A stretch of 64,000 bases of DNA from a virus (IMGVR_UViG_3300044970_001297:1-64000); one strand, 5' to 3'; counted from the first letter of the stretch, positions 2,385 to 55,244 are shown. Translations and numbers: made by a program. The notes: generated by a model from the letters alone, not told the origin.

Positions 2385-4538
2385 ATGGCAGATACTACCA
2401 TCAAAATCAAGAGAGGCTTAACTGCGGGGGTTGTTCCCTCTGGACTCACATACGGCGAACTTGCCGTGAATGTGGCAGATGCCATTCTATATGTTGGTGG
2501 TACAACTGGAGAAACCATACAAATAGTGGGTGGCGGTGGCGGTTCTGGTGGTTCTGGTTCTACAGGTGCCACTGGCGCAACTGGTGCCACAGGTGCTACA
2601 GGTCCAACAGGAGCAACGGGAGCCACTGGTCCAACAGGTGCCATTCCAACCGATTATGTAATTTCGTTCAATGGTCTTACTGGTGCAATAGGGATCACCG
2701 CAGGAAGCAATGTAACGATCACACAGAGTGGAAATACATTCACCATTTCCTCAAGTGGAAGTGGTGGTCCTGGTGCCACAGGTGCTACTGGTGCCACAGG
2801 TGCTACTGGTGCTACTGGTGCCACGGGTGCAACTGGTGAGATTGGACCACAAGGACCAACAGGTGCCACTGGTGCCACAGGTGCTACTGGTGCTACTGGT
2901 GCAACTGGTGCTATCCCAACAGATTATGTCATATCCGTGAACGGACAGACAGGTGCAGTCGCGAATGTTGCCAGGACAAATGAAGGAAATACTTTCTCCG
3001 TTGTTCAGGTGATGAATGCTGGCATCACATCCGCTGGTCTGTATGTGACGAGTGGATCTACATTCGATTCAACGATTGCGGCCACATCAGCGACAAACAC
3101 CGTTGATATAATTGCTTCTACAGATGGTGCTGGTTTACGCATCGCACAGGCAACATCTGGTGCAGGAAGTCGAATTGGTGGCATAAGGTTTGGGCGCGCA
3201 TCCACTGCTTCATTTAATTCATATCTTGAGAATGTATCTGGTGTGTTAACTGTGTACAATGGAACATCGAACACAGGTACAAACCTTTTCAATCTCAGCA
3301 CCTCACAGGCAAACTTCGGTGTTCCAGTTGGTGGAACGACATTCGATGGTGTGGTTGTCGCAAATGCTGGTTTGACAGCAACTGTTGCAAATGTCACACA
3401 GACAATCAATGTACCATTTCAATCAGTCGGCAATACCGCACAAAGAGTGAACATCGGTGTCTATGGAACAATGTCTGAGACATCATCCTCCGCAGCATTC
3501 ATCATTGGAAATGCAATTGCGGCATCCAAGCAATCGGCACAGCAGGTGGAGAAGACATCGTTTGATGAAGGTCAGTTCATCAGGATGCGCTATAATGTCG
3601 GCATGTCGTTCCATACTGGAGTGACTGGCAATGCAAACACGGAATATCCGGAAACCGTGAACACAAGAATGGTTGTGGATCTCAATGGAAATGTCGGAAT
3701 AAACACGACTGCTCCATCTTCCAAGTTGGATGTAGTCGGTGGCATCTCTGGCAGCAATCTCTACATCTCTGGTGGTTCCACATTCATCGGAAACATCTTT
3801 GCCCCGAACATCGTGAACTCGGTGAATGGCTTGACTGGTGCGGTTGGAATCGTTGCTGGAACAAATGTGACGATTACTCCAAGCGGAAACACGCTGACAA
3901 TATCCGCAAGTAGCGGTGGTAGCGGAGGTGGTGCGGCTGGATCAACGATCACCACGATAGACTTCTCGCAGTTGGTCAATCAAATCGAACTTGTCATATA
4001 TGGAGTTGGTGGAGATTTTGCGTCTTCGTTGCAGAATATAGAGCAGTATGGTGTTGAGAACACTACTGTTACTGTGGATACTGGATCTTCGAATTACACA
4101 ACATGTGCGTTGGAAAGCATTGAATCGTTTAACGACGACACCAATGGTTGGTCTGCTAGGATTGTGATAAAGCCACCGTTTGTCGGTGGAACAAGCACAA
4201 CAGCGGAAGGTGTGATTGGGGAGACAGTAAGCACCGTTTATGTTAATAATTCTGTTGTTGATGATTATTGGAATGGCATTCAATCGATTCGCCTCCTGCA
4301 CAAGGAAGAGACATATGCAGTCAAGACCATAACTGGTCAGTCGTGGGTCGCAGCAGATACCTTCATAACATGCAAGGTTCTTGGATTGACCTCCGACGAT
4401 CATGACGCAGAGGATGCAATCCTTGAGGGTGTTCGGTTTGAGATAAATAACATAGTCGCTGCGACTGGATTCGACCTCATCGGTCATGCTCCAGAGGGTA
4501 CTTACGGAAAATACAAGATAGAGTGTTTAGGATTCTAA
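2385..4538 (+). CDS. tail fibre protein with tropism-determinant-like N-terminus and collagen repeats
   Basis: N-terminal 'TIKIKRG...LTYGELAVN..D..LYVG'; (GAT)n repeats; repeated 'VxSxNGLTGA' joints; 'GNVGINTTAPSSKLDV'. Confidence 0.75.
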   Translation: MADTTIKIKRGLTAGVVPSGLTYGELAVNVADAILYVGGTTGETIQIVGGGGGSGGSGSTGATGATGATGATGPTGATGATGPTGAIPTDYVISFNGLTGAIGITAGSNVTITQSGNTFTISSSGSGGPGATGATGATGATGATGATGATGEIGPQGPTGATGATGATGATGATGAIPTDYVISVNGQTGAVANVARTNEGNTFSVVQVMNAGITSAGLYVTSGSTFDSTIAATSATNTVDIIASTDGAGLRIAQATSGAGSRIGGIRFGRASTASFNSYLENVSGVLTVYNGTSNTGTNLFNLSTSQANFGVPVGGTTFDGVVVANAGLTATVANVTQTINVPFQSVGNTAQRVNIGVYGTMSETSSSAAFIIGNAIAASKQSAQQVEKTSFDEGQFIRMRYNVGMSFHTGVTGNANTEYPETVNTRMVVDLNGNVGINTTAPSSKLDVVGGISGSNLYISGGSTFIGNIFAPNIVNSVNGLTGAVGIVAGTNVTITPSGNTLTISASSGGSGGGAAGSTITTIDFSQLVNQIELVIYGVGGDFASSLQNIEQYGVENTTVTVDTGSSNYTTCALESIESFNDDTNGWSARIVIKPPFVGGTSTTAEGVIGETVSTVYVNNSVVDDYWNGIQSIRLLHKEETYAVKTITGQSWVAADTFITCKVLGLTSDDHDAEDAILEGVRFEINNIVAATGFDLIGHAPEGTYGKYKIECLGF

Positions 4539-29811: not shown

Positions 29812-30765
29812 TTATTCGTCGCTGAGAAGAAGTGCGAGTTCGTCTGAAACCTCGCCAGTCTCTGCGAAATCAGCAAGGATCTCTGCAAGACCTTCTTCGC
29901 CATATAGTTCGATTCCCTCTGCGAGGATCGCGTCGAGGATGTCAAAATCCTCTTCCTCTGCAACCTCTTGACGAGTTGCACTGGTTCCTGTGGTTCCATA
30001 GGTTGCGCTGGAGCCAGTTGGACGACCAGAGCCTAGGTTTGTCTTGCGACTCTTTGGAGCCTTTGAGGTTGTAGTACCACCAGAACCAAATGTTCCGCTG
30101 CCCAATGCTCTTGCTAGGTCGTATCCACTCTTCATGCCAGAGAATCTACCTTGATTCCAATACTCAGCACCAGCCTCTGCAACCTCTTGACGAGTTGCAT
30201 TGGTTCCTGTGGTTCCATAGGTTGCACTGGAGCCAGTTGGACGACCAGAGCCTAGGTTTGTCTTGCGACCACCCTTTGGACCCTTTCCAAGGGTGTTGCT
30301 TCCACTGAATGTCTTTCCAGCATTCAATGCCTTTGCTATGTCATATCCACTCTTCATGCCAGAGAACTCACCTGTATTCCATGATGCTTCGTCGAGGATT
30401 GCCAACGCTTCCTCAATGTCGGCTTCTGTGATCGCACCCCTCTTGGCTGCTGTTCCGACAGATGCCTTAGCAGAAGACGATCCCTTGCCACCCTTGACGC
30501 TTGTTCTGTTGGATGAGGCAAAGTTGCCGCGACCACCGCTCTTGGCAGCAGTAGTGAATGCGTTTGGACTTGGCTTTCCACCACCCATCTGAGATGCAAG
30601 CCATTGAGCCAACTGCATGGCATTCATTGCACCACCGATTGATGAATGTCCCCATTGAATTCCAGATGTGCCAGAACCATCTGTTGCGGTTCCTGCTGTT
30701 GATGTGGAAACTGCCTCTTGGACAGATTCGATTAGTGATGCGTAGCCGTCGCGGTTGATTGCCAT
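29812..30765 (-). CDS. probable head-internal polyprotein with a 73-aa tandem duplication and acidic C-terminus
   Basis: G/S/T-rich modules separated by 'VQE|A', 'LDE|A', 'VAE|A'; C-terminal 'EEEDFDILDAILAEG'. Confidence 0.6.
   Translation of the reverse strand: MAINRDGYASLIESVQEAVSTSTAGTATDGSGTSGIQWGHSSIGGAMNAMQLAQWLASQMGGGKPSPNAFTTAAKSGGRGNFASSNRTSVKGGKGSSSAKASVGTAAKRGAITEADIEEALAILDEASWNTGEFSGMKSGYDIAKALNAGKTFSGSNTLGKGPKGGRKTNLGSGRPTGSSATYGTTGTNATRQEVAEAGAEYWNQGRFSGMKSGYDLARALGSGTFGSGGTTTSKAPKSRKTNLGSGRPTGSSATYGTTGTSATRQEVAEEEDFDILDAILAEGIELYGEEGLAEILADFAETGEVSDELALLLSDE
29956..30269. repeat. near-perfect ~95 bp direct repeat (29956-30050 / 30175-30269), period 219 bp
   Basis: ctctgcaacctcttgacgagttgca...cctaggtttgtcttgcgac occurs twice, with 2 visible mismatches. 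Confidence 0.9.
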
Positions 30766-30970
30766 GTTCTTACCTTTCGTAGTTTCGAAACTTTATGAAT
30801 GTGCTGATAGGTTCTAGAATATCAACACTTGTTTGAATATTTAGCATTTCTTGAATTGCAACCCTCAAGGTTCTTCTTTCGGTTCAGACTCTTCACGAAG
30901 ATCTGATGCTTGAGGTCACGGATTCTTGGTCTTGCTGGTGTCTTCACTTTTGCCATGATATAGTCCCCTT

Positions 30971-32182
30971 TTACTTGGTCTTGAGTTTACCAGTTCTCTT
31001 TAGATAGTTATAGAGTGGACGCATACCCTCTTGGTTGTTCTGTCCGAAGTCGCCGCTACGAGCGCGGTTTCTGAAATCACGCATTGCTGCCTGAGCCTCG
31101 CGCTTCTTGGAAATCTGGCTCTTTGTCATCTTTGGCTTCTTGCCCTGCAAGCGATTTGCCATTGCCTCGACCGAACCAGAACCTGTGTCTCTTGCCACTC
31201 CCCTATCGATATTCAGGTTGCGGAATGATGCGATGGCTTTGCTGCGCTGATTGGCAAGGTTTCCTGCCTTCTGAGTGTACTTTCCACTCTTGCCTATGAG
31301 ACTTCCGCCACCCTTGACTGCCTCGGCAGATGCTCCACCCTTCATTGCCATTCTTGCAGCAACCTTGGATTGGAGTTCCGCTGCTGCTCTTGCGACCTTT
31401 GGATTTCCTGTGTCATATGCCTTACCTCTGAGGCGCATCAACTTCTTGTAGCCAGCCTCATCCAACTGCTCGGCTTCAGCAAGACCCTTTGCCTTCATAG
31501 CAGAGTGCTTGAGTGCGGCTCTTCCAAGAACTGCCGATGTTGCTCCACCAAACTTTTCCTTGTCCTTGTAGAACTTCTTCTTGAAGGAACGCTGCATGAA
31601 GTCTGCGACTTCGCCTTTGATGGGCTTCCCTGAAACATTGTGCTTGCGAATGATTCGCATACGCTTTGCACTGACTCCCTCTGCAAGCCCAACATCTTCT
31701 TTGGTTAGAATAGCGGTAGCACGCTTGACTCCGCGCTTTCTATTTTTCATCTTTCGTTCTGCTTCATCTGAAAGGCCCGATCCCACCATCTGGTTGTAAG
31801 CAGACAACTCACCATAATCTTTCATTGACTTGTTGATGTAGGAACCAAGAGTCTTCTTGTTCAACTCGTCCAGTTCTTCAACTTCCTCATTCACACCCAA
31901 CTCCTTCTCCTTCTTGGCAAGGTTCCAGGATCGTGCATACATGACTTCCTTCCACCTCTTGCCGTATTGCTTCTTGAAGGATGCCTTGACCTTGGGATCG
32001 GATGCCCAATCCTCCATGCCAGGTGCTGCCTTCTCTTCGATTGTCTCCTCGCAGATCTGACGAGCCTTCTCTGTGAGGGAGTTGAGGTAGCCCTCTTGGA
32101 GAGCCTTTGCGCGGTCAGCATCCACTGGATCGACCACAGATGCGATTGTCTCGTTGAGTGCCTTGATATCTCTTGTACGCAT
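30971..32182 (-). CDS. probable head-internal polyprotein (basic modules with acidic xxE linkers)
   Basis: Linkers LNE, LQE, IEE, LDE, LAE; 'ELNKKTLGSYINK', 'KKQYGKRWKEVMYARSW' modules. Confidence 0.65.
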   Translation of the reverse strand: MRTRDIKALNETIASVVDPVDADRAKALQEGYLNSLTEKARQICEETIEEKAAPGMEDWASDPKVKASFKKQYGKRWKEVMYARSWNLAKKEKELGVNEEVEELDELNKKTLGSYINKSMKDYGELSAYNQMVGSGLSDEAERKMKNRKRGVKRATAILTKEDVGLAEGVSAKRMRIIRKHNVSGKPIKGEVADFMQRSFKKKFYKDKEKFGGATSAVLGRAALKHSAMKAKGLAEAEQLDEAGYKKLMRLRGKAYDTGNPKVARAAAELQSKVAARMAMKGGASAEAVKGGGSLIGKSGKYTQKAGNLANQRSKAIASFRNLNIDRGVARDTGSGSVEAMANRLQGKKPKMTKSQISKKREAQAAMRDFRNRARSGDFGQNNQEGMRPLYNYLKRTGKLKTK

Positions 32183-32194
32183 TTGTATTTCCTT

Positions 32195-32443
32195 TTAGAA
32201 CTTTCTACCTGTGATCATGTAATCGGTGTTGTCTTGTGGAGTGCCAAGTGTGTTCACGACGCCGCCAACCACGCGCTTCACGGCACGGCCAGCCTTCTTC
32301 AACTTGCGAAGCAACTTCTTTGCATCCTTTTCGTTTGGCTTTCTTACTTCCTGAATGTCCTCGGCGGGAACAAAGATGTTTGTATCCTTTGCCCTGCCCT
32401 GTGGAGTGATGGAGTTGAGGTGTTGTAGGAACTGATTGTTCAT
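32195..32443 (-). CDS. small probable head-internal protein, leader shared with 37397..38737
   Basis: 'MNNQFLQHLNSITPQGRAKDTNIFVPAEDIQE'. Confidence 0.65.
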   Translation of the reverse strand: MNNQFLQHLNSITPQGRAKDTNIFVPAEDIQEVRKPNEKDAKKLLRKLKKAGRAVKRVVGGVVNTLGTPQDNTDYMITGRKF

Positions 32444-32455
32444 GTTGGTTCTTTC

Positions 32456-33670
32456 TTAGTTTCGTGGAGACTTTATGCCTTGATCTCGCTTTCGCATTCC
32501 GCGAGCCATGAAATTCTGTCTTGCAGTCGTGATCTCTGCCTTGTCGTGATAACCGCCTCGCGCATGGATCGCAGGGTAACTTTTGAGTATTTCATTGGAA
32601 GCACCACCACGGCGAAGGGTAGCGACTTTTCTTTTCAAGTCTGCTAGATCGTATTCTGGTCCGTGTCCAAACTTACGATAGGCTTTTCCTACCTTGGAGC
32701 GAGTTGCTTCATTGACTTTACGAGGAGACTTCTTGCCATCCTCCCTGCTTCTCGTTGCCTTTCTTGCAAAGCGATATGTTGCCATTGAAGCATCATGTGG
32801 ATTATATGTTGGATCGCGCGGCTCATTGCGATTGAATCGCCCTTGGGCAGCAGCGGCTTTCTTCATCGTCTCTGCATCGGCACCACCGCGCTGAAGCATA
32901 GCCACCTCCCGCTTGAGTCTTGCCAAGTTCAATGCTTTGCTCTCATCAGAGCCGACCTTGTGCTTGCCATATACCTTGAGATACTTGGAGCGAGTTGCTT
33001 CCTTGAGTTGCTCCTCTGCATCCTTCTTGTTCTGCATCCAGAACTTTGCTTCTTCCTTGTCGCCCTTCTTTACTGCCTTGACGATCTCGCGTTTCGATCC
33101 CTTGATTGCCTTCTTGAGTTCACCCTTTGAGTGGACATAGGAACCCTCATCAAGATCCACATCTTCGAAGATCTTCTTGCCCTTGGCATTTGCCTTATCC
33201 ATGGCACCCTTGCTGAATCTTTCATATGCCTTGTCTGCTGCTGGTGTGGTGGGCTTGTCGGTGAAGAAGCCACGAATTGTCTGCTTTCTTGCTCCACCAC
33301 GACGAAGACGGCTTGCAGACAACTTGGAAAGTTCCTTGTCATATGCATCGGCGGTTTCGCGAGAAGCCTTTCCACTCACATGTGCGCGGCGAAGCCTACG
33401 CATTCTCTTCACGCCTTCAGAGATGGACTCTTCGTTCGTCTCTTCCTGCTTCTTTTCGGCGTTCTTGTCTAAAGGAGCCTTTTTGCCCTTCTTTGCAAGC
33501 CAAGCCTTTCCAGCAGCCATGTTTTCTCTTCTAAGTTGTGCTTCTGTCTTGGAGAAAGGCACTCCTCTACGACGAGCCTCGTTCATCTCAGGATGATCGA
33601 AAAGTGTATCGGTATTCTCGTTGAGTGCCTTGGCGAGATAGAGCCTCTGCTGTAGATTTGGTGAGTTCAT
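32456..33670 (-). CDS. probable head-internal polyprotein with repeated basic 'LxRGGA' modules
   Basis: Modules start after MNE, ISE, LDE, LKE, VNE; two start EATRSK; CATAAATA promoter upstream. Confidence 0.65.
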   Translation of the reverse strand: MNSPNLQQRLYLAKALNENTDTLFDHPEMNEARRRGVPFSKTEAQLRRENMAAGKAWLAKKGKKAPLDKNAEKKQEETNEESISEGVKRMRRLRRAHVSGKASRETADAYDKELSKLSASRLRRGGARKQTIRGFFTDKPTTPAADKAYERFSKGAMDKANAKGKKIFEDVDLDEGSYVHSKGELKKAIKGSKREIVKAVKKGDKEEAKFWMQNKKDAEEQLKEATRSKYLKVYGKHKVGSDESKALNLARLKREVAMLQRGGADAETMKKAAAAQGRFNRNEPRDPTYNPHDASMATYRFARKATRSREDGKKSPRKVNEATRSKVGKAYRKFGHGPEYDLADLKRKVATLRRGGASNEILKSYPAIHARGGYHDKAEITTARQNFMARGMRKRDQGIKSPRN

Positions 33671-33710
33671 GCTTCTTCCTTATTTGCCTATTTTAGAACG
33701 CTTCTATTAT

Positions 33711-35105
33711 TTATGATTTCCGCAAAGGTCGGATGACGAGCCGTGAACCAAGAACCCGCCTATGTTCAGGATCACTTTCTCTGGTCGTGGGTAAAAATGA
33801 TGGAGTTCCCTTGCTCTTTGCGACTTTCGGTTCGTGTGGCAATGTATCGCTTGCCCATATGCGCTTTTCGGGAACATCATGTGCGGGAACTTCCCCCTTC
33901 GCGGTGTGGTGGAAGACTCTACCCTTCATCTTTGGATCCTTGCGGAGCCTGTTCCACACGGATGCGCCACCAGGGCTTTGCAATCCACTGCTCCAAAGGT
34001 TTCCCTTCTTCTTGGCAATGTGCTTGTATGCGAGTGCCGCAAGGGACTTACCGATTTTCTTTCTTGTGTGCAATCCATGAACTTCCGTATGAATGACTTG
34101 ATGCTCGTCTCCATGGGACACCGTGGACACCTCACCCGCGACATGACCAGTCTGATCATGGACGATGTAGTGAGTCTGAACCTTTGGATCGTCCTTGTGT
34201 GTGCTTGTATGGAGTGTGTATCCCTTGGCTACTCTTCCCGATCTCTTCGTGGGATTGCCTGTTCTCTCCACGGTCTTTGCGAAGTTTCTTGCACTGAGCA
34301 ATCCACCTCTCGGCTTTTCAAGGACATTTGCAATCTCAATGTCCTCCCCAATGAAATCAAGGAACGACATGTATCCTTCCTTGACGAGTGCCTTCTTCTT
34401 TGGCTTTGCTACCCGTGCCTGTTGCTTCTGTATCAGGCTAAAGTACTTCGGCTTGTTGATGTGCTTTGGCATGAGTTCATGGGCGAGTTCTGTGTCGCCA
34501 GATGCAACTGCCTTGCGAAGCCTTCCTGCCTTTGCCACGCTCATGTCTCCCTTGCGAAGCCTTGCAAGGACTTCGTGCCTTCGCATATCTCCTTCATGCC
34601 TCTCTGCACCCATCTGATGGAAACTCACCGTTGCCTTGTGAACCTTGCCATCCTTGTCCAATATTCCACCGTACTTCTTCACATGCCCCTCTATTGCGGT
34701 CTTGACACCACCTTTTTTCATCTGATCCGATCCAAGACCGATGGTGATGTGCTTGTGTCCCTGTCTTGCGAGATGCGCCAGTTGATGGAATGGACTCACA
34801 TGTTCCTTTTCGGTTGTGCGAAACTGCATTCCCTTGTGTTCCTTGGCAATGTTCCTGTGACCAGAACGAATGACGGAACGCTTTTGTCCATGCGTCAACG
34901 GATCATCTGCCGATTGCTTCGATGCGGCACCGATGCCATGGTAGAAGTGCGTATGACCCGTCGAGGCAGCATGTGCAGCGGCTTGCCTTGCCATCTCATG
35001 GTGTCCAACGGTGTATGGGCTGTAGGAGCCAGGAAGGAGGAATGCCTTGCCAGATGGCTTGGGCTTGCTTGCTTCATCAATGGGAACTATGTGTATTGTT
35101 TTCAT
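33711..35105 (-). CDS. HIGH-class nucleotidyltransferase-like (cytidyltransferase) domain fused to a GNAT-like domain; probable internal protein
   Basis: 'LLPGSYSPYTVGH', 'GLGSDQ', 'AGRLRKAV..GD'; internal 'MSFLDFIGE'; C-terminal 'YKH...LWSSGLQSPGGASVWNRL'. Confidence 0.55.
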   Translation of the reverse strand: MKTIHIVPIDEASKPKPSGKAFLLPGSYSPYTVGHHEMARQAAAHAASTGHTHFYHGIGAASKQSADDPLTHGQKRSVIRSGHRNIAKEHKGMQFRTTEKEHVSPFHQLAHLARQGHKHITIGLGSDQMKKGGVKTAIEGHVKKYGGILDKDGKVHKATVSFHQMGAERHEGDMRRHEVLARLRKGDMSVAKAGRLRKAVASGDTELAHELMPKHINKPKYFSLIQKQQARVAKPKKKALVKEGYMSFLDFIGEDIEIANVLEKPRGGLLSARNFAKTVERTGNPTKRSGRVAKGYTLHTSTHKDDPKVQTHYIVHDQTGHVAGEVSTVSHGDEHQVIHTEVHGLHTRKKIGKSLAALAYKHIAKKKGNLWSSGLQSPGGASVWNRLRKDPKMKGRVFHHTAKGEVPAHDVPEKRIWASDTLPHEPKVAKSKGTPSFLPTTRESDPEHRRVLGSRLVIRPLRKS

Positions 35106-35125
35106 AATGATATTTAGAAAAAACA

Positions 35126-35150
35126 AGGTGGGGGATCGTGTCCCCCACCT
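35126..35150 (-). terminator. intrinsic terminator
   Basis: AGGTGGGGGA-TCGTG-TCCCCCACCT with a U-run on the minus strand. Confidence 0.7.
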
Positions 35151-35221
35151 GTGCGTCTGACTGGGTTAGTCTTCTTCGTGTTCCGACATATACCACCATT
35201 CGGCAGTATCGAATCCACCTA

Positions 35222-36028
35222 TCAAACCGTCCACGGTTTGATTTCGATTGGTTCCATCTTTGAATGACTTGATCGGTTTGCATTTGACCATGCTTTTGCT
35301 TCCTTGGCAGTCTTGGCAACATGAAGTTCCTTGCTTCTCTGCCAATCATAGACTGTCCAACCTCGTTTGCCTTGCTTTTCAATGGAATGATTTCCCTTCA
35401 CCCATCTGCGATGACCTAGTCCACGGCTATGAATCCACCCATCCTTGGCTTTGCTACCGTATGCTTCTTGAATCTTCTTTCGAACCTTGAATGCGGATGG
35501 TGCTTCATGCGTCGAGGGATCTATGATCGGATCACGGGCATAGTCGCTGTGCTTTCGCGAGTCCTTGGTTCCAAGATCGTCAGACTTGAACTTTCTTCGT
35601 GCGGACTTGCTGAGATTTGCGATTGGGAACTTCACAACATGAATGTTTTCGTAGTCGCGCTCACCAACCTCATGCTTGCGGCGATTGACTGCATGGGCTG
35701 TCTGATCCACCCAATACCCTACGCCATGATGGTTGGTCACGAATGCGTGTCCCTGCGTGTGTTCCTTCTGGCTTGGGTAGTTGGTGCGTCCCTTTGGACT
35801 TCGTGGCTTGAGTCCACCCTTGACGATCTTCGCGGCTCTTGCGGCTGTGGTCGCATGGTAGACATACTTCTGCTTTTCTGAGTTAGGCATCTCATGGAAG
35901 TCATGTGCATACGACCAGTTCTCATTGAGTTCGTTTCCATGTCCATCATGAATGAAGTGCTTTGGATATGCACGGGCAATCATCCTGACTGCCGTTGCCT
36001 CGACTATGAACTCCCTGTAAGTCTTCAT
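35222..36028 (-). CDS. capsid-targeted protein with an ADP-ribosyltransferase-like (Tpt1/ART) domain
   Basis: N-terminal MKTYREFIVE; 'VYHATT......IVKGGLKPR', 'HAFVT'. Confidence 0.55.
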   Translation of the reverse strand: MKTYREFIVEATAVRMIARAYPKHFIHDGHGNELNENWSYAHDFHEMPNSEKQKYVYHATTAARAAKIVKGGLKPRSPKGRTNYPSQKEHTQGHAFVTNHHGVGYWVDQTAHAVNRRKHEVGERDYENIHVVKFPIANLSKSARRKFKSDDLGTKDSRKHSDYARDPIIDPSTHEAPSAFKVRKKIQEAYGSKAKDGWIHSRGLGHRRWVKGNHSIEKQGKRGWTVYDWQRSKELHVAKTAKEAKAWSNANRSSHSKMEPIEIKPWTV

Positions 36029-36031
36029 GTA

Positions 36032-36400
36032 TTATTCCTCGTAGAAGCCTTCGTTGCTTCCGCCATACAACCGAATAAGACGACCAGCGAGTGCATTGGC
36101 TTCGTCCTCGCATGGTGATCCCGTGTCTCCGTCGAGTTCATCACCACATTCATCCTGCATCTGATGGACGAGTTCGTGTGCAATGGAACGGCAGATGTCG
36201 AATGTGGCTCTGTTGCCACTCACAACACGAATGCTCTTGTCTGCTGGACAATACGATGCCGTGGTCATGCCATTCTCACGCACCTGAACCAAACGAACAT
36301 TCGGTGTGTTTGCAAGACCAAGTTCCTGTGCGGCAAAGTCAACGAAGTTTTGAATCGTCTGCTCGTTTGCCTCTGCGATGAAACGATTGAATGACTTCAT
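36032..36400 (-). CDS. capsid-targeted zincin metallopeptidase-like protein
   Basis: N-terminal MKSFNRFIAE; 'RSIAHELVHQMQ...EDEANALAG'. Confidence 0.7.
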   Translation of the reverse strand: MKSFNRFIAEANEQTIQNFVDFAAQELGLANTPNVRLVQVRENGMTTASYCPADKSIRVVSGNRATFDICRSIAHELVHQMQDECGDELDGDTGSPCEDEANALAGRLIRLYGGSNEGFYEE

Positions 36401-37083
36401 TTCTTCTTTGCCTTGAGTATGAGTTGAGTTCCAAATGCCCTGGTTGCCTTGGGCGACGAATAATCGTGCATTCGGATTCCCTTGGATGCTGCCTTGCGTC
36501 TGACTCCCCCACTACCAGAAGTCCATATGTCAGCGGGATTCATCTTGGATGCCTGTCCGATGTCCTTTATGTCTCCATCCCCTTTTCTACTAACGACCGC
36601 ACGGACATGCTTCTTGGTCTTGGGATCCTTCATCAGGTGCTGCCATACTGATGCACCACCCATACTCTGTTGAATGCCGCTATGAATGGTATAGCCGTGC
36701 TTTCCATGAAGATGCTTGTATGCTGCCACGGCAAGCGAATGCCCTATCTTCTTCTTCGAATGATGCGGGTGGATGGCTAGAAATCCTACCCGCAAGTGCT
36801 TACTCGTTTCCGGATTATCACTCACATGATCATTTTCTATGTGTCCAACCACTTTCTTGCTTTTATCGTGGGTTATGAAGAAGTCATTACCATTGTGGTT
36901 TCGATGGATAGAATATTCTTTATGAATCTTACCAAGTTTATGCATACGAAGCGAAGGAAGGCTTCGCGCGGCTTCAATATCCGAATGGAACTCATCATGA
37001 ATACCTTTCCAGTCTTTGCGGTTTAATCTACTAATATTTGGTTCTAGTTGTATGTCCTCAAGTAGTTGGCGATAGGTCTTCAT
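36397..37083 (-). CDS. capsid-targeted GNAT-like protein
   Basis: MKTYRQLLE; 'HSKKKIGHSLAVAAYKHL...SGIQQSMGGASVWQHL'; paralogous to the C-terminus of 33711..35105. Confidence 0.55.
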   Translation of the reverse strand: MKTYRQLLEDIQLEPNISRLNRKDWKGIHDEFHSDIEAARSLPSLRMHKLGKIHKEYSIHRNHNGNDFFITHDKSKKVVGHIENDHVSDNPETSKHLRVGFLAIHPHHSKKKIGHSLAVAAYKHLHGKHGYTIHSGIQQSMGGASVWQHLMKDPKTKKHVRAVVSRKGDGDIKDIGQASKMNPADIWTSGSGGVRRKAASKGIRMHDYSSPKATRAFGTQLILKAKKK

Positions 37084-37394
37084 TTATTTCCCTTTGCCAT
37101 GTGGTGTGCAGTATGCATATATGCATTATGAATGGCATCATTCATCGTCTTATGAGTTCCATGTATGGTATTTAGACCAATGTCCTTACCATTCACACGA
37201 ATGTTCCCTGCCTGATATCCCCAACCACCCATGCGACTCCATCCCTTGACCACATGACCGACGATGCCACGATGCGAGAACATGGATGTGGTGTCATTGA
37301 TCTTGCGAATGTTCGCACCATGACCAGATTGCTTGATCTTCACATATCTTTCATTGGAAGATGCTTCAGTGAGAAACTGACTGAATGACTTCAT
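37080..37394 (-). CDS. small capsid-targeted internal protein
   Basis: N-terminal MKSFSQFLTE|A. Confidence 0.65.
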   Translation of the reverse strand: MKSFSQFLTEASSNERYVKIKQSGHGANIRKINDTTSMFSHRGIVGHVVKGWSRMGGWGYQAGNIRVNGKDIGLNTIHGTHKTMNDAIHNAYMHTAHHMAKGNK

Positions 37395-37396
37395 GT

Positions 37397-38737
37397 TCAA
37401 TCGTCCTCGTAATCGTCCTTCTCGTTCTTGTGTTCCTTCTCAATGTCACGAAGGACATTCTTTGGAACTGCCATGCCAATCCTCTTGTGGCGACGGGCAA
37501 CCAAACGGGCAATCATGCTCTTGGTCGATTCTCTCTTTTCCTCTTCCTTTTCCTCTTCTTCGGATATCGAATTTGGAGTATTGGAAAGGTAGTCTTTCAC
37601 CGAAGAAATGTAATCTGCTGATTTCGTGATCTTGGACTGAACCCATCCCTCAAGTTGGGAATCAGACTTGAGCATCGACATGATGTCGTTGGCATTTGCA
37701 ATGATGGACTTGAGTTCACCCATTGCCATTCCACCCTCATCATCGACTTCCTTCTGCTCATGAAGATTGCCGTGGTATGTGTGGAAAGACATCTGAATGG
37801 CATTGGAACCTTCCGCATGTGAACCCATCAGTTTAGGAACATTATGCTTTTGAAGAATACCCTGAATGCTTTGATGAAGTTTCGCTGAATTCTTCGCCCC
37901 GATTCCCCCGATTCCCTTAGCATGTCCACCAGTACGGGCAAGTATCTTGCCGTGCTTTGCCTTGAGTTCACGGATTGCACCCTTTGGAAGATCATACAAC
38001 CAATCTTCCATGGATGCCTTCACTGCACCTTCATATACTGGTATTGGATTCTTCCTACCCTTACCGACGAACTTCTTCAACCCATCAGCATCTCGCTTGT
38101 GCTTGTTGCTATAGGTGAGCATGAGAAGTTCAGGAACTGCGGGAATGGCATACTGTGCATACTTGGGGGCTTCCGTCATTGGAAACAAACGCCCAGTCTT
38201 GCCAGCGCGTGATGCGGCACGGGAACGCATTCCAACCTCGCGATAGTACCTTTGTCTGCCCTCTGGACTCAAGCCACGAAGTCTCTTCTGTAGTTTGCCA
38301 GAGAAACTCTTGATCTCACCCTTGGTGTACTTGTCGTATGGATCCTGTCCTGGTGGAAGTATGGGCTTTGCTCTCCCCGAACGACCACGATTTGGATCAT
38401 TGGTCGAGACTGCTTCCTTGAGTGGAATGCCTGTCCTTGCGGAGAAGTCTCCAAGTGCGCGGTCGAGTTTCTTTCCATACCGCTTGGCATTGCTGCTCAT
38501 CTTCTTGCCCCAACGCTCCCTTGCGGCTTCATAGTCCTTGAGGCTTCCGCTACCCTCTCTCCAGTTGCGGGATGCATGTGCAAGTTTTCTTGCTGCCTTC
38601 CTTGGCATCCCCTTGAGGTTCTGTCCGACATCGGGAACGGCTTCGCTGATGTCCTTCGCGGGAACAAAGATGGATGTATCCTTGGCTCTACCCTGAGGTG
38701 TGATTGAGTTTAGGTGGTTTAGGAATTGGTTGCTCAT
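37397..38737 (-). CDS. probable head-internal polyprotein
   Basis: Leader MSNQFLNHLNSITPQGRAKDTSIFVPAKDISE|A; linkers LKE, MTE, VYE, LHE; conserved 'EGGMAMGEL...LEGWVQSKITKSADYISSVKDYL' module. Confidence 0.65.
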   Translation of the reverse strand: MSNQFLNHLNSITPQGRAKDTSIFVPAKDISEAVPDVGQNLKGMPRKAARKLAHASRNWREGSGSLKDYEAARERWGKKMSSNAKRYGKKLDRALGDFSARTGIPLKEAVSTNDPNRGRSGRAKPILPPGQDPYDKYTKGEIKSFSGKLQKRLRGLSPEGRQRYYREVGMRSRAASRAGKTGRLFPMTEAPKYAQYAIPAVPELLMLTYSNKHKRDADGLKKFVGKGRKNPIPVYEGAVKASMEDWLYDLPKGAIRELKAKHGKILARTGGHAKGIGGIGAKNSAKLHQSIQGILQKHNVPKLMGSHAEGSNAIQMSFHTYHGNLHEQKEVDDEGGMAMGELKSIIANANDIMSMLKSDSQLEGWVQSKITKSADYISSVKDYLSNTPNSISEEEEKEEEKRESTKSMIARLVARRHKRIGMAVPKNVLRDIEKEHKNEKDDYEDD

Positions 38738-38741
38738 GTCT

Positions 38742-39323
38742 CTATGCCTTTGCTGTTGTTTTCCTTGGGTGCAAGTACAGGTGGTGCTTGTATCCTGTCC
38801 TTCGACCATATGCCAGTTTCTCATGCTGTTCGGGATCGTATTGCTGCATCTTGGGCTTCTTGCCCCATTGCTCCTCTGCAAACTTCACCCTCTTCTTTGC
38901 CGCGAGTTGCCGCCAGATGTGGCGACCACCCTTTGTCTGTGCGTCATCGCTTCTTATCGTGTGTCCCGTCTTGTCTGCCAACATCATGTATGTCTTTGCC
39001 ATCAGCCCTCGCACCAATGCCTTCTTTCCCCTGTGGCTTGGATGCAAGGAAGGACCACGCGGGATGATTTGCTTCTTGTGCTTGTTGTATGGAACATGAC
39101 CAACCGATTCGCCATTGTGCATGATGTGGACTATTCCATAACCACTCTTGGCCCCTCGGTGTCGTATCTCGTATGGACCGACCTTGCCCATGCGCTTGGT
39201 TCCATGAGCAGACTCTGGATAATGCTTAGAATCCCCGTAGTCAAGGACGGGTTCTTCGTTCAATAGACCAAGTTCACGAAGTGCTGCCTCTGCCAAGATC
39301 TTTCGTGCTTCTGTGTATCTCAT
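38742..39323 (-). CDS. GNAT-like probable internal protein
   Basis: Leader MRYTEARKILAEAALRELGLLNE; 'LHPSHRGK...TIRSDDAQTKGGRHIWRQL'. Confidence 0.6.
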   Translation of the reverse strand: MRYTEARKILAEAALRELGLLNEEPVLDYGDSKHYPESAHGTKRMGKVGPYEIRHRGAKSGYGIVHIMHNGESVGHVPYNKHKKQIIPRGPSLHPSHRGKKALVRGLMAKTYMMLADKTGHTIRSDDAQTKGGRHIWRQLAAKKRVKFAEEQWGKKPKMQQYDPEQHEKLAYGRRTGYKHHLYLHPRKTTAKA

Positions 39324-39701
39324 TGTCCTAGTTCCCTTAAAGTGTTGAAAGTGAAAGTTCCATTTGATGTTCCCACCAAATGGAACGGTGAGTTTCTTCT
39401 TTTCTTAGTTCTTTGGTTTGAGAACCCTTTTCGTCTCTTGACCAGCAACATTGATGTTCCTGTATGCCACACCCTTTCGCAACTTCACCTTCTTGCCACC
39501 CTTGCCAATGAGGTTGGGTGATGCTCGCTCCCTATCGTCTCGCATCAATTCGCGATCAGCGTTCTGACGCCTTGCAAATGCGGTGTTGATTGCCCTGCGG
39601 TTCTCTAAATCTCGTCCTGGTGTGGTATAGTCTTCATCCAATAGACCAAGTTCAAGAAGTGCTGCCTCTGCCAAGATCTGTCGTGCTTCTGAGTATCTCA
39701 T
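39261..39701. repeat. 63 bp direct repeat encoding a shared leader (39261-39323 / 39639-39701)
   Basis: 3 mismatches by eye; covers exactly the first 21 codons of two otherwise unrelated genes. Confidence 0.9.
39405..39701 (-). CDS. small basic probable internal protein
   Basis: Leader MRYSEARQILAEAALLELGLLDE. Confidence 0.6.
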   Translation of the reverse strand: MRYSEARQILAEAALLELGLLDEDYTTPGRDLENRRAINTAFARRQNADRELMRDDRERASPNLIGKGGKKVKLRKGVAYRNINVAGQETKRVLKPKN

Positions 39702-54257: not shown

Positions 54258-54473
54258 TTACGCGCTCTTGGCAGGAGAGAGATATTGTTCAAAATCCTCT
54301 CCGTAGATCTCGACTCGCTTTGCTGGACTCAGAGATTGAAGTTCAGCAACCTTGTCGATTCCATATTTCGCAACCCGCTCATCGGCAGTCATGCGAAACA
54401 GGTTCTTGTCAAACACATGCTTTCCTTGAAAGCAACTCTGCACCCATCGTCTAAAAAACTCACTCATCTCATG
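54258..54473 (-). CDS. hypothetical protein
   Basis: SD GGAGGT; overlaps the upstream stop. Confidence 0.5.
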   Translation of the reverse strand, partial: HEMSEFFRRWVQSCFQGKHVFDKNLFRMTADERVAKYGIDKVAELQSLSPAKRVEIYGEDFEQYLSPAKSA

Positions 54474-55002
54474 CACCTCCACCTACTATGAACTTCTTGC
54501 CCTTCAACCGCGTGTTGAAGTCGCCAACATTGGTGCTGATGCCAGCACCACCGATACGCGCTCTCTTTCCCTTCGGAACCCAATCCGACTTGCCAGTTCC
54601 GTGGAACACGCTGCCGTGCTTCTTGGAAACAGAGAGAACGGTGTCTTGACCAAACTGCTCCCCATGCTTCTTGAGATCCCTAAGAAGAGTAGCATGATCT
54701 CCTACGCTACCCCGTTTGGGTGCGGGAAGTTGACCAGAATGAACCATGAAGGTCTTCTCCTTCACCTTCTTCTTCTCTCCATTGTGGTCTTCGATGTACT
54801 CGCCCTTGACTGGAACAGGAGTGTATCCATGCTGCTTGAGGCTTGCCCTGAGTGCCTTCGTCCTCTTGTTGTTCTCAGCGGGAGAAAGATTCCCACGGCT
54901 TGCTGATATGAAACCCACCATGTGACCACCTTCGATGTGACCATGTAGACGGGAAAGGGAACGCCTTGCTGCCTCTGAAATGAACTCTCTATATGACTTC
55001 AT
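54469..55002 (-). CDS. capsid-targeted conserved protein (DUF3293-like)
   Basis: MKSYREFISE|A; 'ISASR....EN..R...L', 'GEYIE...EKTFMV', 'FGQDTVL'; perfect TATAAATA at 55026-55033. Confidence 0.65.
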   Translation of the reverse strand: MKSYREFISEAARRSLSRLHGHIEGGHMVGFISASRGNLSPAENNKRTKALRASLKQHGYTPVPVKGEYIEDHNGEKKKVKEKTFMVHSGQLPAPKRGSVGDHATLLRDLKKHGEQFGQDTVLSVSKKHGSVFHGTGKSDWVPKGKRARIGGAGISTNVGDFNTRLKGKKFIVGGGA

Positions 55003-55028
55003 GGAAAAGTCCTCCTGTATGGAGATAT

Positions 55029-55244
55029 TTATACTAGCCCGTTTTCCTCATCAAACTTAGCAATCCTGTCCATGGCGCAATTGCTGAGTTCTTTTTGAGT
55101 TTCCTTGAGTTTCCTCTGAAGTTCCATGATCTCCCCATATGCGTCCCCAATCAGAATGAGGACATCCTTGGGAAGGTCCGTGCGCTTGGTGGCAACGCGA
55201 AGGCGGTAGTCGATATGCAGATGATCGTCATCTTGCCACATCAT
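55029..55244 (-). CDS. hypothetical protein
   Basis: Coupled operon ORF. Confidence 0.5.
   Translation of the reverse strand: MMWQDDDHLHIDYRLRVATKRTDLPKDVLILIGDAYGEIMELQRKLKETQKELSNCAMDRIAKFDEENGLV

Follow-up and report, generated by a model that had tools for sequence, protein, structure and literature searches.

In the 64,000-nucleotide stretch of viral DNA analysed here (IMGVR_UViG_3300044970_001297:1-64000, hereafter the window), which covers the first 64 kb of an IMG/VR virus contig of 92.8 kb with an estimated completeness of 53%, two pairs of minus-strand genes begin with a common leader peptide and differ in all that follows. Leader 1 opens the genes for proteins of 82 and 446 amino acids (aa), and leader 2 opens those for proteins of 193 and 98 aa. 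We show that leaders and cargo of this kind are shuffled: leaders have been exchanged on an orthologous cargo with the junctions at a protease-type motif, similar leaders precede many different cargoes, and insertions and deletions between close relatives begin and end in [LIM]-x-E triplets. The best explanation, and one that we consider likely, is that leaders 1 and 2 are further head-address propeptides beside the classic capsid-targeting sequence (CTS) of phage T4, and that the region is the internal-head-protein locus of a T4-like myovirus. By analogy with T4, the proteins that carry these leaders would be packaged into the head, cleaved and injected, and the picture to which the leaders point is a mix-and-match loading of proteins into the phage head.

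The leader-1 genes lie at 32195-32443(-) and 37397-38737(-), the latter starting at the ATG at 38737 and not in the longer TTG frame. Compared codon by codon, they are identical at 27 of 32 residues over codons 1-32, with codon differences that are synonymous in 11 cases and non-synonymous in 5, and they have no likeness from codon 33 on, right behind IQE or ISE. BLASTP of the two proteins matched residues 1-33 only (E 7e-18), and the DNA upstream of the two genes shows no similarity. For this pair the synonymous rate (dS) is ~0.99 and the non-synonymous rate (dN) is 0.10, giving a dN/dS of ~0.1, and relatives conserve the peptide although their synonymous sites have reached saturation; leader 1 is therefore an old peptide under purifying selection and not a recent DNA copy. 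There are exactly two copies on the whole 92.8-kb contig. A profile built from these two copies and searched against 1.84 billion representative proteins gave 28 hits, 26 of them true cluster representatives (78-718 aa long), and six IMG/VR loci also carry leader 1. Every one of the 26 true hits is matched at residues 1-28/32, and 7 locus copies of the leader are N-terminal too. Across the 33 proteins compared, the conserved core comprises residues 1-27, and every one of them has an [LIVMF]-x-E triplet at residue 29-58; it stands at residue 32 in 15 proteins and at 45-58, behind an acidic spacer, in the remainder, and the residue after it is most often A, L or G. Exact degenerate-DNA scans of IMG/VR with a longer core of leader 1, or of leader 2, found nothing. 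As a conjecture from very short sequences, leader 1 might be a canonical CTS that has lost its Glu (QFLNHL compared with QFLTE).

The leader-2 genes, at 38742-39323(-) and 39405-39701(-), agree at 19 of 23 residues over codons 1-23, and their similarity ends behind LNE and LDE (LNE/E and LDE/D; a slash within a motif marks the junction). Five of the 69 nt differ, three of them in the first 63 nt, and four of the five differences are non-synonymous; the DNA upstream of the two genes is again without similarity. Because the DNA is near-identical (64/69 nt, dS ~0.06), this pair is a recent copy, and no further copies occur on the contig. Between the leader-2 core and its relatives, the proportion of synonymous differences (pS) is 0.56-0.78 against 0.11-0.26 for non-synonymous ones (pN). 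These comparisons bear out the original prediction as regards the two leader pairs, the end of their similarity at an [IL]-x-E site, the mostly synonymous differences in leader 1, the three mismatches in 63 bp of leader 2 and the start of the 446-aa gene.

A degenerate DNA pattern for the first 13 codons of leader 2 (the 12-aa core), looser than the scans with a longer core, matched two IMG/VR contigs and 16 metagenome loci, of which 14 are genuine; the hits L019 and L029 were discarded as unrelated proteins. No match came from a word-index protein search that used the N-terminal 40 aa of the 193-aa protein. In all, 27 distinct proteins in ~10-12 cargo families begin with leader 2 at their ATG, and the leader-2 genes form tandem arrays of 1-5 between a zinc-ribbon gene and the leader-1 gene, as they do in the window. 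The constant part is a 12-aa core ending ILAE/A or ILSE/A; in the matched set it always ends [IL]-[LV]-x-E/A, which the search pattern partly imposed. Some cargoes begin directly behind this core, and the other proteins have a second spacer of the type IEQLDE/, A-x-x-ELGLLNE/ or IEQLETIAE/, the type being independent of the cargo family. One such spacer, IEQLETIAEA, is duplicated in tandem inside one gene at L027:4769-5137 and L030:618-986, which fits slippage or unequal recombination at linker sequences. Two variants, at L020:2478-2879 and 3355-3588 (-), begin MKY and not MRY, and look intermediate between leader 2 and the canonical MKTY-type CTS. The original prediction had taken both leaders for new classes of capsid-targeting propeptides. 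This is plausible; leader 2, however, is a composite of a 12-aa core ending ILAE/A that resembles a lengthened T4 CTS and an optional second spacer, for which reason the name of a CTS variant suits it better than that of an entirely new class.

Direct evidence of leader exchange on the same cargo involves G001, a close, syntenic relative of 156.6 kb that is 86% complete. The G001 gene at L006:4391-5710 carries leader 1 and its counterpart in another relative, L020 2339, carries leader 2, their cargoes are ~90% identical, and the DNA similarity between them begins at GAAGC, that is, at the E/A codons. The cargo so exchanged is the orthologue of the 446-aa gene of the window and occupies the same syntenic place. 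Breakpoints inside the cargo follow the same rule: a 157-aa block of the 446-aa gene is missing in the G001 orthologue, with E/A on both borders, and the leader-1 proteins P0005 and P0004 are identical save for a 149-aa block between L-Q-E and M-N-E. In addition, the GNAT-like cargo of the 193-aa gene has three settings, namely after leader 2, after a canonical CTS and inside polyproteins as a module, and the junction is x-x-E/ in each; in its paralogue at 36397-37083 the canonical CTS is joined at L-L-E/DIQLEP, and relatives have V-T-E/DIELIP. Behind leader 1 the module map distinguishes at least eight different first modules, and the refuting condition set with the original prediction, one constant domain behind homologous leaders, does not hold. 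The predicted shuffling of cargo by recombination at leaders and linkers is strongly supported by the many cargoes, the swap at E/A and the indels at [LIM]-x-E.

The leader-1 proteins are mosaics whose basic modules come from one common stock, and the same modules recur behind other N-termini of the locus, including those of 30971-32182, 32456-33670 and 29812-30765 in the window; the leader-1 protein P0001 has in its interior the short module that 35222-36028 carries behind its canonical CTS. The basic proteins of the locus have a net charge of +21 to +44, and are highly charged and of low complexity. At the syntenic position of the 82-aa gene, the alleles of relatives are 342-638 aa long (synteny in L006, L008, L009 and L010), and P0002, P0004 and P0005 have the leader and tail of the 82-aa protein with 0-150 aa inserted. 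The 82-aa protein is the minimal allele, leader plus C-terminal tail, of a hypervariable mosaic gene of 82-638 aa. The earlier description of the cargoes as unrelated holds for the pair itself, in which nothing is shared past the leader, but not for the families, since the 82-aa mosaic family shares modules with the 446-aa paralogue family. The conserved tail, TPQD..D...TGR[KN]F behind a very basic stretch (32195-32260(-) in the window), ends most leader-1 proteins (P0002, P0004-P0007, P0009, P0011, P0014, P0016, P0017, P0019, P0023, P0026 and P0028); by analogy with T4 Alt, which is processed at both ends, it is a candidate for a second signal, at the C-terminus. A C-terminal part of the 446-aa protein (tblastn, aa 318-386) is common to cyanophage proteins, one of which begins with the CTS-like MKTFKQL. 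The product of 29812-30765 (-) is a Gly/Ser-rich protein with an internal tandem repeat, and its acidic C-terminal module (AEGIE.YGE...) is present behind leader 1 in P0012.

Most cargoes of the locus gave no significant family in PHROGs and Pfam, and the 98-aa protein had no homologue but itself in a search of 5.8 billion proteins. The cargo of the 193-aa gene aligns with modules of the 719-991-aa cytidylyltransferase polyproteins of relatives from x-N-E/ on, with a score of 133 (shuffles 56 ± 10). Its AlphaFold2 model has a predicted local distance difference test (pLDDT) value of 74.5, and all top Foldseek hits of this model in the PDB are GNAT acetyltransferases (E 3e-4, probability 1.0), with template-modelling (TM) scores of only 0.31-0.37; matches below the Pfam cut-offs were YunG (E 0.005) and, on the GNAT-like paralogue, Acetyltransf_1 (E 0.001). 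On this model the cargo would be GNAT-like. The gene at 33711-35105 (-), 464 aa here, belongs to a family that combines a cytidylyltransferase-like domain with 1-3 fused GNAT-like modules, with relatives of 719-1152 aa (L006:7044-9203, L009:192-3167 and L026:3854-7312). Its module junctions are of the form x-x-E/DIE..., and an internal CTS-like stretch reads GYMSFLDFIGE/D; this architecture suggests gene fusion or fission at leaders.

In T4, the prohead protease gp21 cuts after [LI]-x-E, as first seen at a Glu-Ala bond; ten residues suffice for a CTS, and the propeptides of virion proteins span 7 to 65 residues (PMC9026906). The related motif [LIVM]xE[AGS] occurs 20 times in the mosaic proteins of the window, compared with 5.8 ± 2.4 in shuffles, and 123 times in their homologues (33.3 ± 5.6), and shows no excess in control open reading frames of the contig (54 compared with 52.6 ± 7.2). 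Among family members, 31.8% of the starts of BLAST high-scoring segment pairs lie within 3 aa of the motif, compared with 11.5 ± 1.5% at random positions. The relative G001 encodes a Peptidase_S77/gp21 protein (E 3e-39) adjoining the portal (gp20), scaffold (gp22) and gp23 genes. Its gp23 is 55% identical to gp23 of Pelagibacter, Methylophilales and cyanobacterial myoviruses and has L-R-E/A at the expected maturation site, where T4 cuts.

The contig itself derives from a distant, uncultured T4-like myovirus, because it carries a gp32-type single-stranded DNA-binding protein, T4-type baseplate and neck genes (gp26, gp48, gp4, gp5 and gp6-like), and a ribonucleotide reductase and a CobT-like peptidase that are ~28% identical to their cyanomyovirus counterparts. 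A head module was not found on its 92.8 kb. Cultured or close relatives were not matched by megablast of the locus against phage genomes or by tblastn against cultured phages with a leader-1 mosaic protein as query, and a locus search with the CobT-like neighbour as single query gave no relative. The leader genes belong to a row of 12 minus-strand genes (29812-39701, ~10 kb), all of which open with a short peptide ending [LIVM]-x-E; their features are collected in the table below.

Features of the leader genes and their surroundings (window coordinates; a slash marks the junction)
Feature	Position	Strand	Remarks
Leader 1, 82-aa gene copy	32348..32443	-	codons 1-32, end IQE/V
Leader 1, 446-aa gene copy	38642..38737	-	codons 1-32, end ISE/A
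Leader 2, 193-aa gene copy	39255..39323	-	codons 1-23; L-x-E triplets at 10-12, 15-17 and 21-23
Leader 2, 98-aa gene copy	39633..39701	-	codons 1-23
82-aa gene cargo	32195..32347	-	basic stretch and conserved C-terminal tail (TPQD..D...TGRKF)
446-aa gene cargo	37397..38641	-	chain of basic modules parted by [LIVM]-x-E/[AG] (motif split, module map)
193-aa gene cargo, putative GNAT-like module	38742..39254	-	full-length alignment to modules inside relatives' polyproteins
98-aa gene cargo, basic orphan	39405..39632	-	singleton in cargo clustering
Four genes with T4-type CTS	35222..37394	-	MKTYREFIVE/A, MKSFNRFIAE/A, MKTYRQLLE/D, MKSFSQFLTE/A
Rest of locus: three basic/mosaic proteins, 82-aa gene, cytidylyltransferase-GNAT fusion	29812..35105	-	own conserved N-termini ending [LI]-x-E; modules common with leader-1 proteins
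ATAAATA sites, examples of 9	2360, 10557, 20095, 29745, 33708, 55026

In the T4 record, ipII and ipIII begin MKTYQEFIAE/A and ipI has a 19-aa form ending ITE/A. The pattern M[KR][TS][FY]..[FL][ILV].E finds the four neighbouring genes and one more at 54469-55002. Neither leader 1 nor leader 2 fits it, and leader 2 shares with the T4 CTS only the general layout and the ending xIxAE/A. Sequence therefore places both leaders outside the T4 CTS family, and the claim made here is one of functional analogy. The gene at 54469-55002 (-) fuses a canonical CTS (MKSYREFISE/A) to an S-adenosylmethionine (SAM) lyase domain (PF23780, E 4e-14), and from its sequence looks like a head-packaged, injected anti-restriction SAMase; a promoter-like motif, TATAAATA, lies at 55026-55033, 24 nt upstream of its start. 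At 36032-36400 (-), a canonical CTS is joined to a small acidic protein that contains HELVH and weakly matches IrrE/Peptidase_M78 (E 0.009); its product is possibly a packaged metallopeptidase. The window is enriched in ATAAATA, the T4 late-promoter core (9 sites, 2.7 expected), which lies mostly just upstream of genes and precedes a tail-fibre gene, the 32456-33670 gene and the CTS-SAM-lyase gene. This placement is consistent with late expression of part of the locus.

We propose that each gene follows a plan of N-terminal address peptide, [LI]-x-E cleavage motif and cargo. Leader 1 consists of a 27-aa conserved core and a variable spacer before the motif, and leader 2 of a 12-aa core ending ILAE/A, often with a second short spacer that also ends L-x-E. 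During prohead assembly, the pre-protein would be docked by its leader onto the scaffolding core. A gp21-type prohead protease would then cut behind the Glu, and also at the same motif between the modules of polyproteins; the head would lose the leader fragments, and the basic peptides and enzymes would remain with the DNA and probably be injected. The junctions between leader and cargo and between modules all lie at cleavage motifs, and recombination there therefore yields an in-frame pre-protein that would mature into intact parts. In this reading, many combinations of leaders and modules exist because recombination at short shared motifs still gives such maturable pre-proteins. A bolder version of this scheme, which we put forward tentatively and do not expect to hold in full, is that several orthogonal tags (canonical CTS, leader 1, leader 2 and single-copy N-termini) might set the docking site, copy number or order of ejection; linkers with the protease motif might act as exon borders that let tags and cargo modules recombine freely, and the locus would be a combinatorial generator of injected proteins and of polyproteins matured in the capsid.

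Several observations weigh against head-address propeptides. Leader 1 is three times as long as the T4 CTS and does not resemble it significantly in sequence, and I-x-E at residues 30-32 is absent in about half of its homologues, in which the first motif comes 14-26 residues later. The gp21-type protease was not found on the contig of the window, which is 53% complete and without the head module, and because that module is missing the protease is shown only in a relative. The enrichment statistics for [LIVM]-x-E concern a short motif and overstate its significance, because the homologues are not independent samples. Furthermore, most of the genes discussed here have no perfect late-promoter motif directly upstream.

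Of the other explanations, one that we regard as unlikely is that the leaders are uncleaved N-terminal motifs retained among paralogues, serving oligomerisation or the binding of DNA or a partner, in proteins that could be non-virion host-takeover factors. Cleavage and packaging of the leaders are indeed drawn from analogy, the 27-aa core of leader 1 is longer than a simple tag requires, and the AlphaFold2 model makes leader 2 a helix, at low confidence. However, the leaders take each other's place, and that of the canonical CTS, on the same cargo and always end at a protease motif, an internal polyprotein junction replaces the leader before the same module in relatives, and the locus is rich in T4-type CTS genes. 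It is also improbable, to a slightly greater degree, that the proteins enter the prohead as core or scaffold-like components, in the manner of gp22, gp67 and gp68, to be chopped and expelled, with the leaders as core-assembly interfaces. Their many internal cleavage motifs recall the T4 core proteins that are cut into multiple fragments (PMC9026906), and high charge and low complexity would suit such a role, but core proteins are conserved and single-copy, whereas these proteins are hypervariable in number, length and modules among close relatives. Moreover, some cargoes are enzyme-like (the GNAT fold, and the SAM lyase behind a canonical CTS), and a charge of +21 to +44 suits DNA-associated internal proteins such as the basic internal proteins of T4. 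Finally, the near-identity of the leader-2 copies in the window would fit recent DNA copying or gene conversion of a nucleic-acid element (translation initiation, RNA structure or a recombination hot spot), but this is very improbable for the shared 5' coding stretches, as leader 1 is conserved as a peptide with its synonymous sites almost saturated, the leader-2 core peptide is kept across relatives, and similarity begins exactly at the ATG with none upstream.

If head-address propeptides are the right explanation, T4-like phages would have more than one address code, nature would swap leader and cargo exactly at the cleavage site, and whole collections of basic peptides and enzymes would be delivered in polyprotein form, to mature within the capsid. 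The T4 CTS, the textbook case of a short tag able to load any protein into the head of a phage, is used to engineer T4 delivery particles; leaders 1 and 2 would be new candidate tags for packaging foreign proteins. Injected proteins of uncultured phages, probably factors of host takeover or anti-defence, could also be found by a simple sequence rule; the SAM lyase behind a canonical CTS in the same window is an example. Our literature searches found no description of leaders 1 and 2. What appears to be new is the coexistence of two further leader families with the canonical CTS in an uncultured T4-like lineage, the direct evidence of leader exchange on the same cargo at cleavage codons, and a pool of cargo modules that is held in common and joined through the protease motif.

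Among known systems, the cargo-loading peptides of encapsulins are likewise short terminal address tags that load a protein shell and can be moved between unrelated cargoes, but they are usually C-terminal and uncleaved and belong to an unrelated shell system. A parallel in layout is the T4 CTS itself. That T-even internal proteins share only the CTS and are otherwise diverse is established (PMC3012670, PMC9026906). Here, as in T4, a peptide that begins at residue 1 and ends [LI]-x-E, then Ala, precedes diverse, basic, non-conserved proteins in a variable locus; in T4 this peptide is 10 aa long in ipII and ipIII and 19 aa long in ipI, near-identical canonical copies are present in the window and in its relatives, and the leader-2 core ending ILAE/A can be set beside FIAE/A of T4. 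In contrast, the 27-aa core of leader 1 is without detectable similarity and its propeptides would be 32-58 aa long, and leader 2 is two residues longer than the T4 form and usually has a second, exchangeable spacer. At least three leader classes coexist in one genome and are swapped on the same cargo, much of which is multi-module polyprotein, and the leaders are known here from sequence alone.

The giant phages SPN3US, phiKZ and 201phi2-1 have long N-terminal propeptides on ejection or inner-body proteins, which are cut after Glu by a gp21 homologue (PMC5694885). As here, these propeptides are longer than the T4 CTS and contain several protease motifs, and the diverged paralogues gp53 and gp54 of SPN3US have identical N-termini, for which a head-targeting role was inferred (PMC5694885). 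Unlike the leaders described here, they use the motif [ASG]-x-E and are at least 100 aa long (PMC5694885), and neither leader exchange between orthologous cargoes nor a shared module pool has been described for them. The T4 core proteins gp22, gp67 and gp68, together with Alt, are similarly cut at several [LI]-x-E sites, and the propeptides at both ends of Alt are a precedent for the conserved C-terminal tail of most leader-1 proteins (PMC9026906); however, these T4 proteins are conserved and not mosaic, whereas the proteins described here gain and lose whole modules among close relatives. The mode of exchange resembles that of the promoter/terminator cassettes (PeSL) in the hyperplastic, variable regions of T4-like genomes, in which short conserved border sequences promote modular exchange (PMC2839356, PMC4122927). 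There the unit is a whole gene and the border an intergenic regulatory motif, whereas in the locus described here the borders lie inside the coding sequence, at protease-motif codons, and the units are protein modules.

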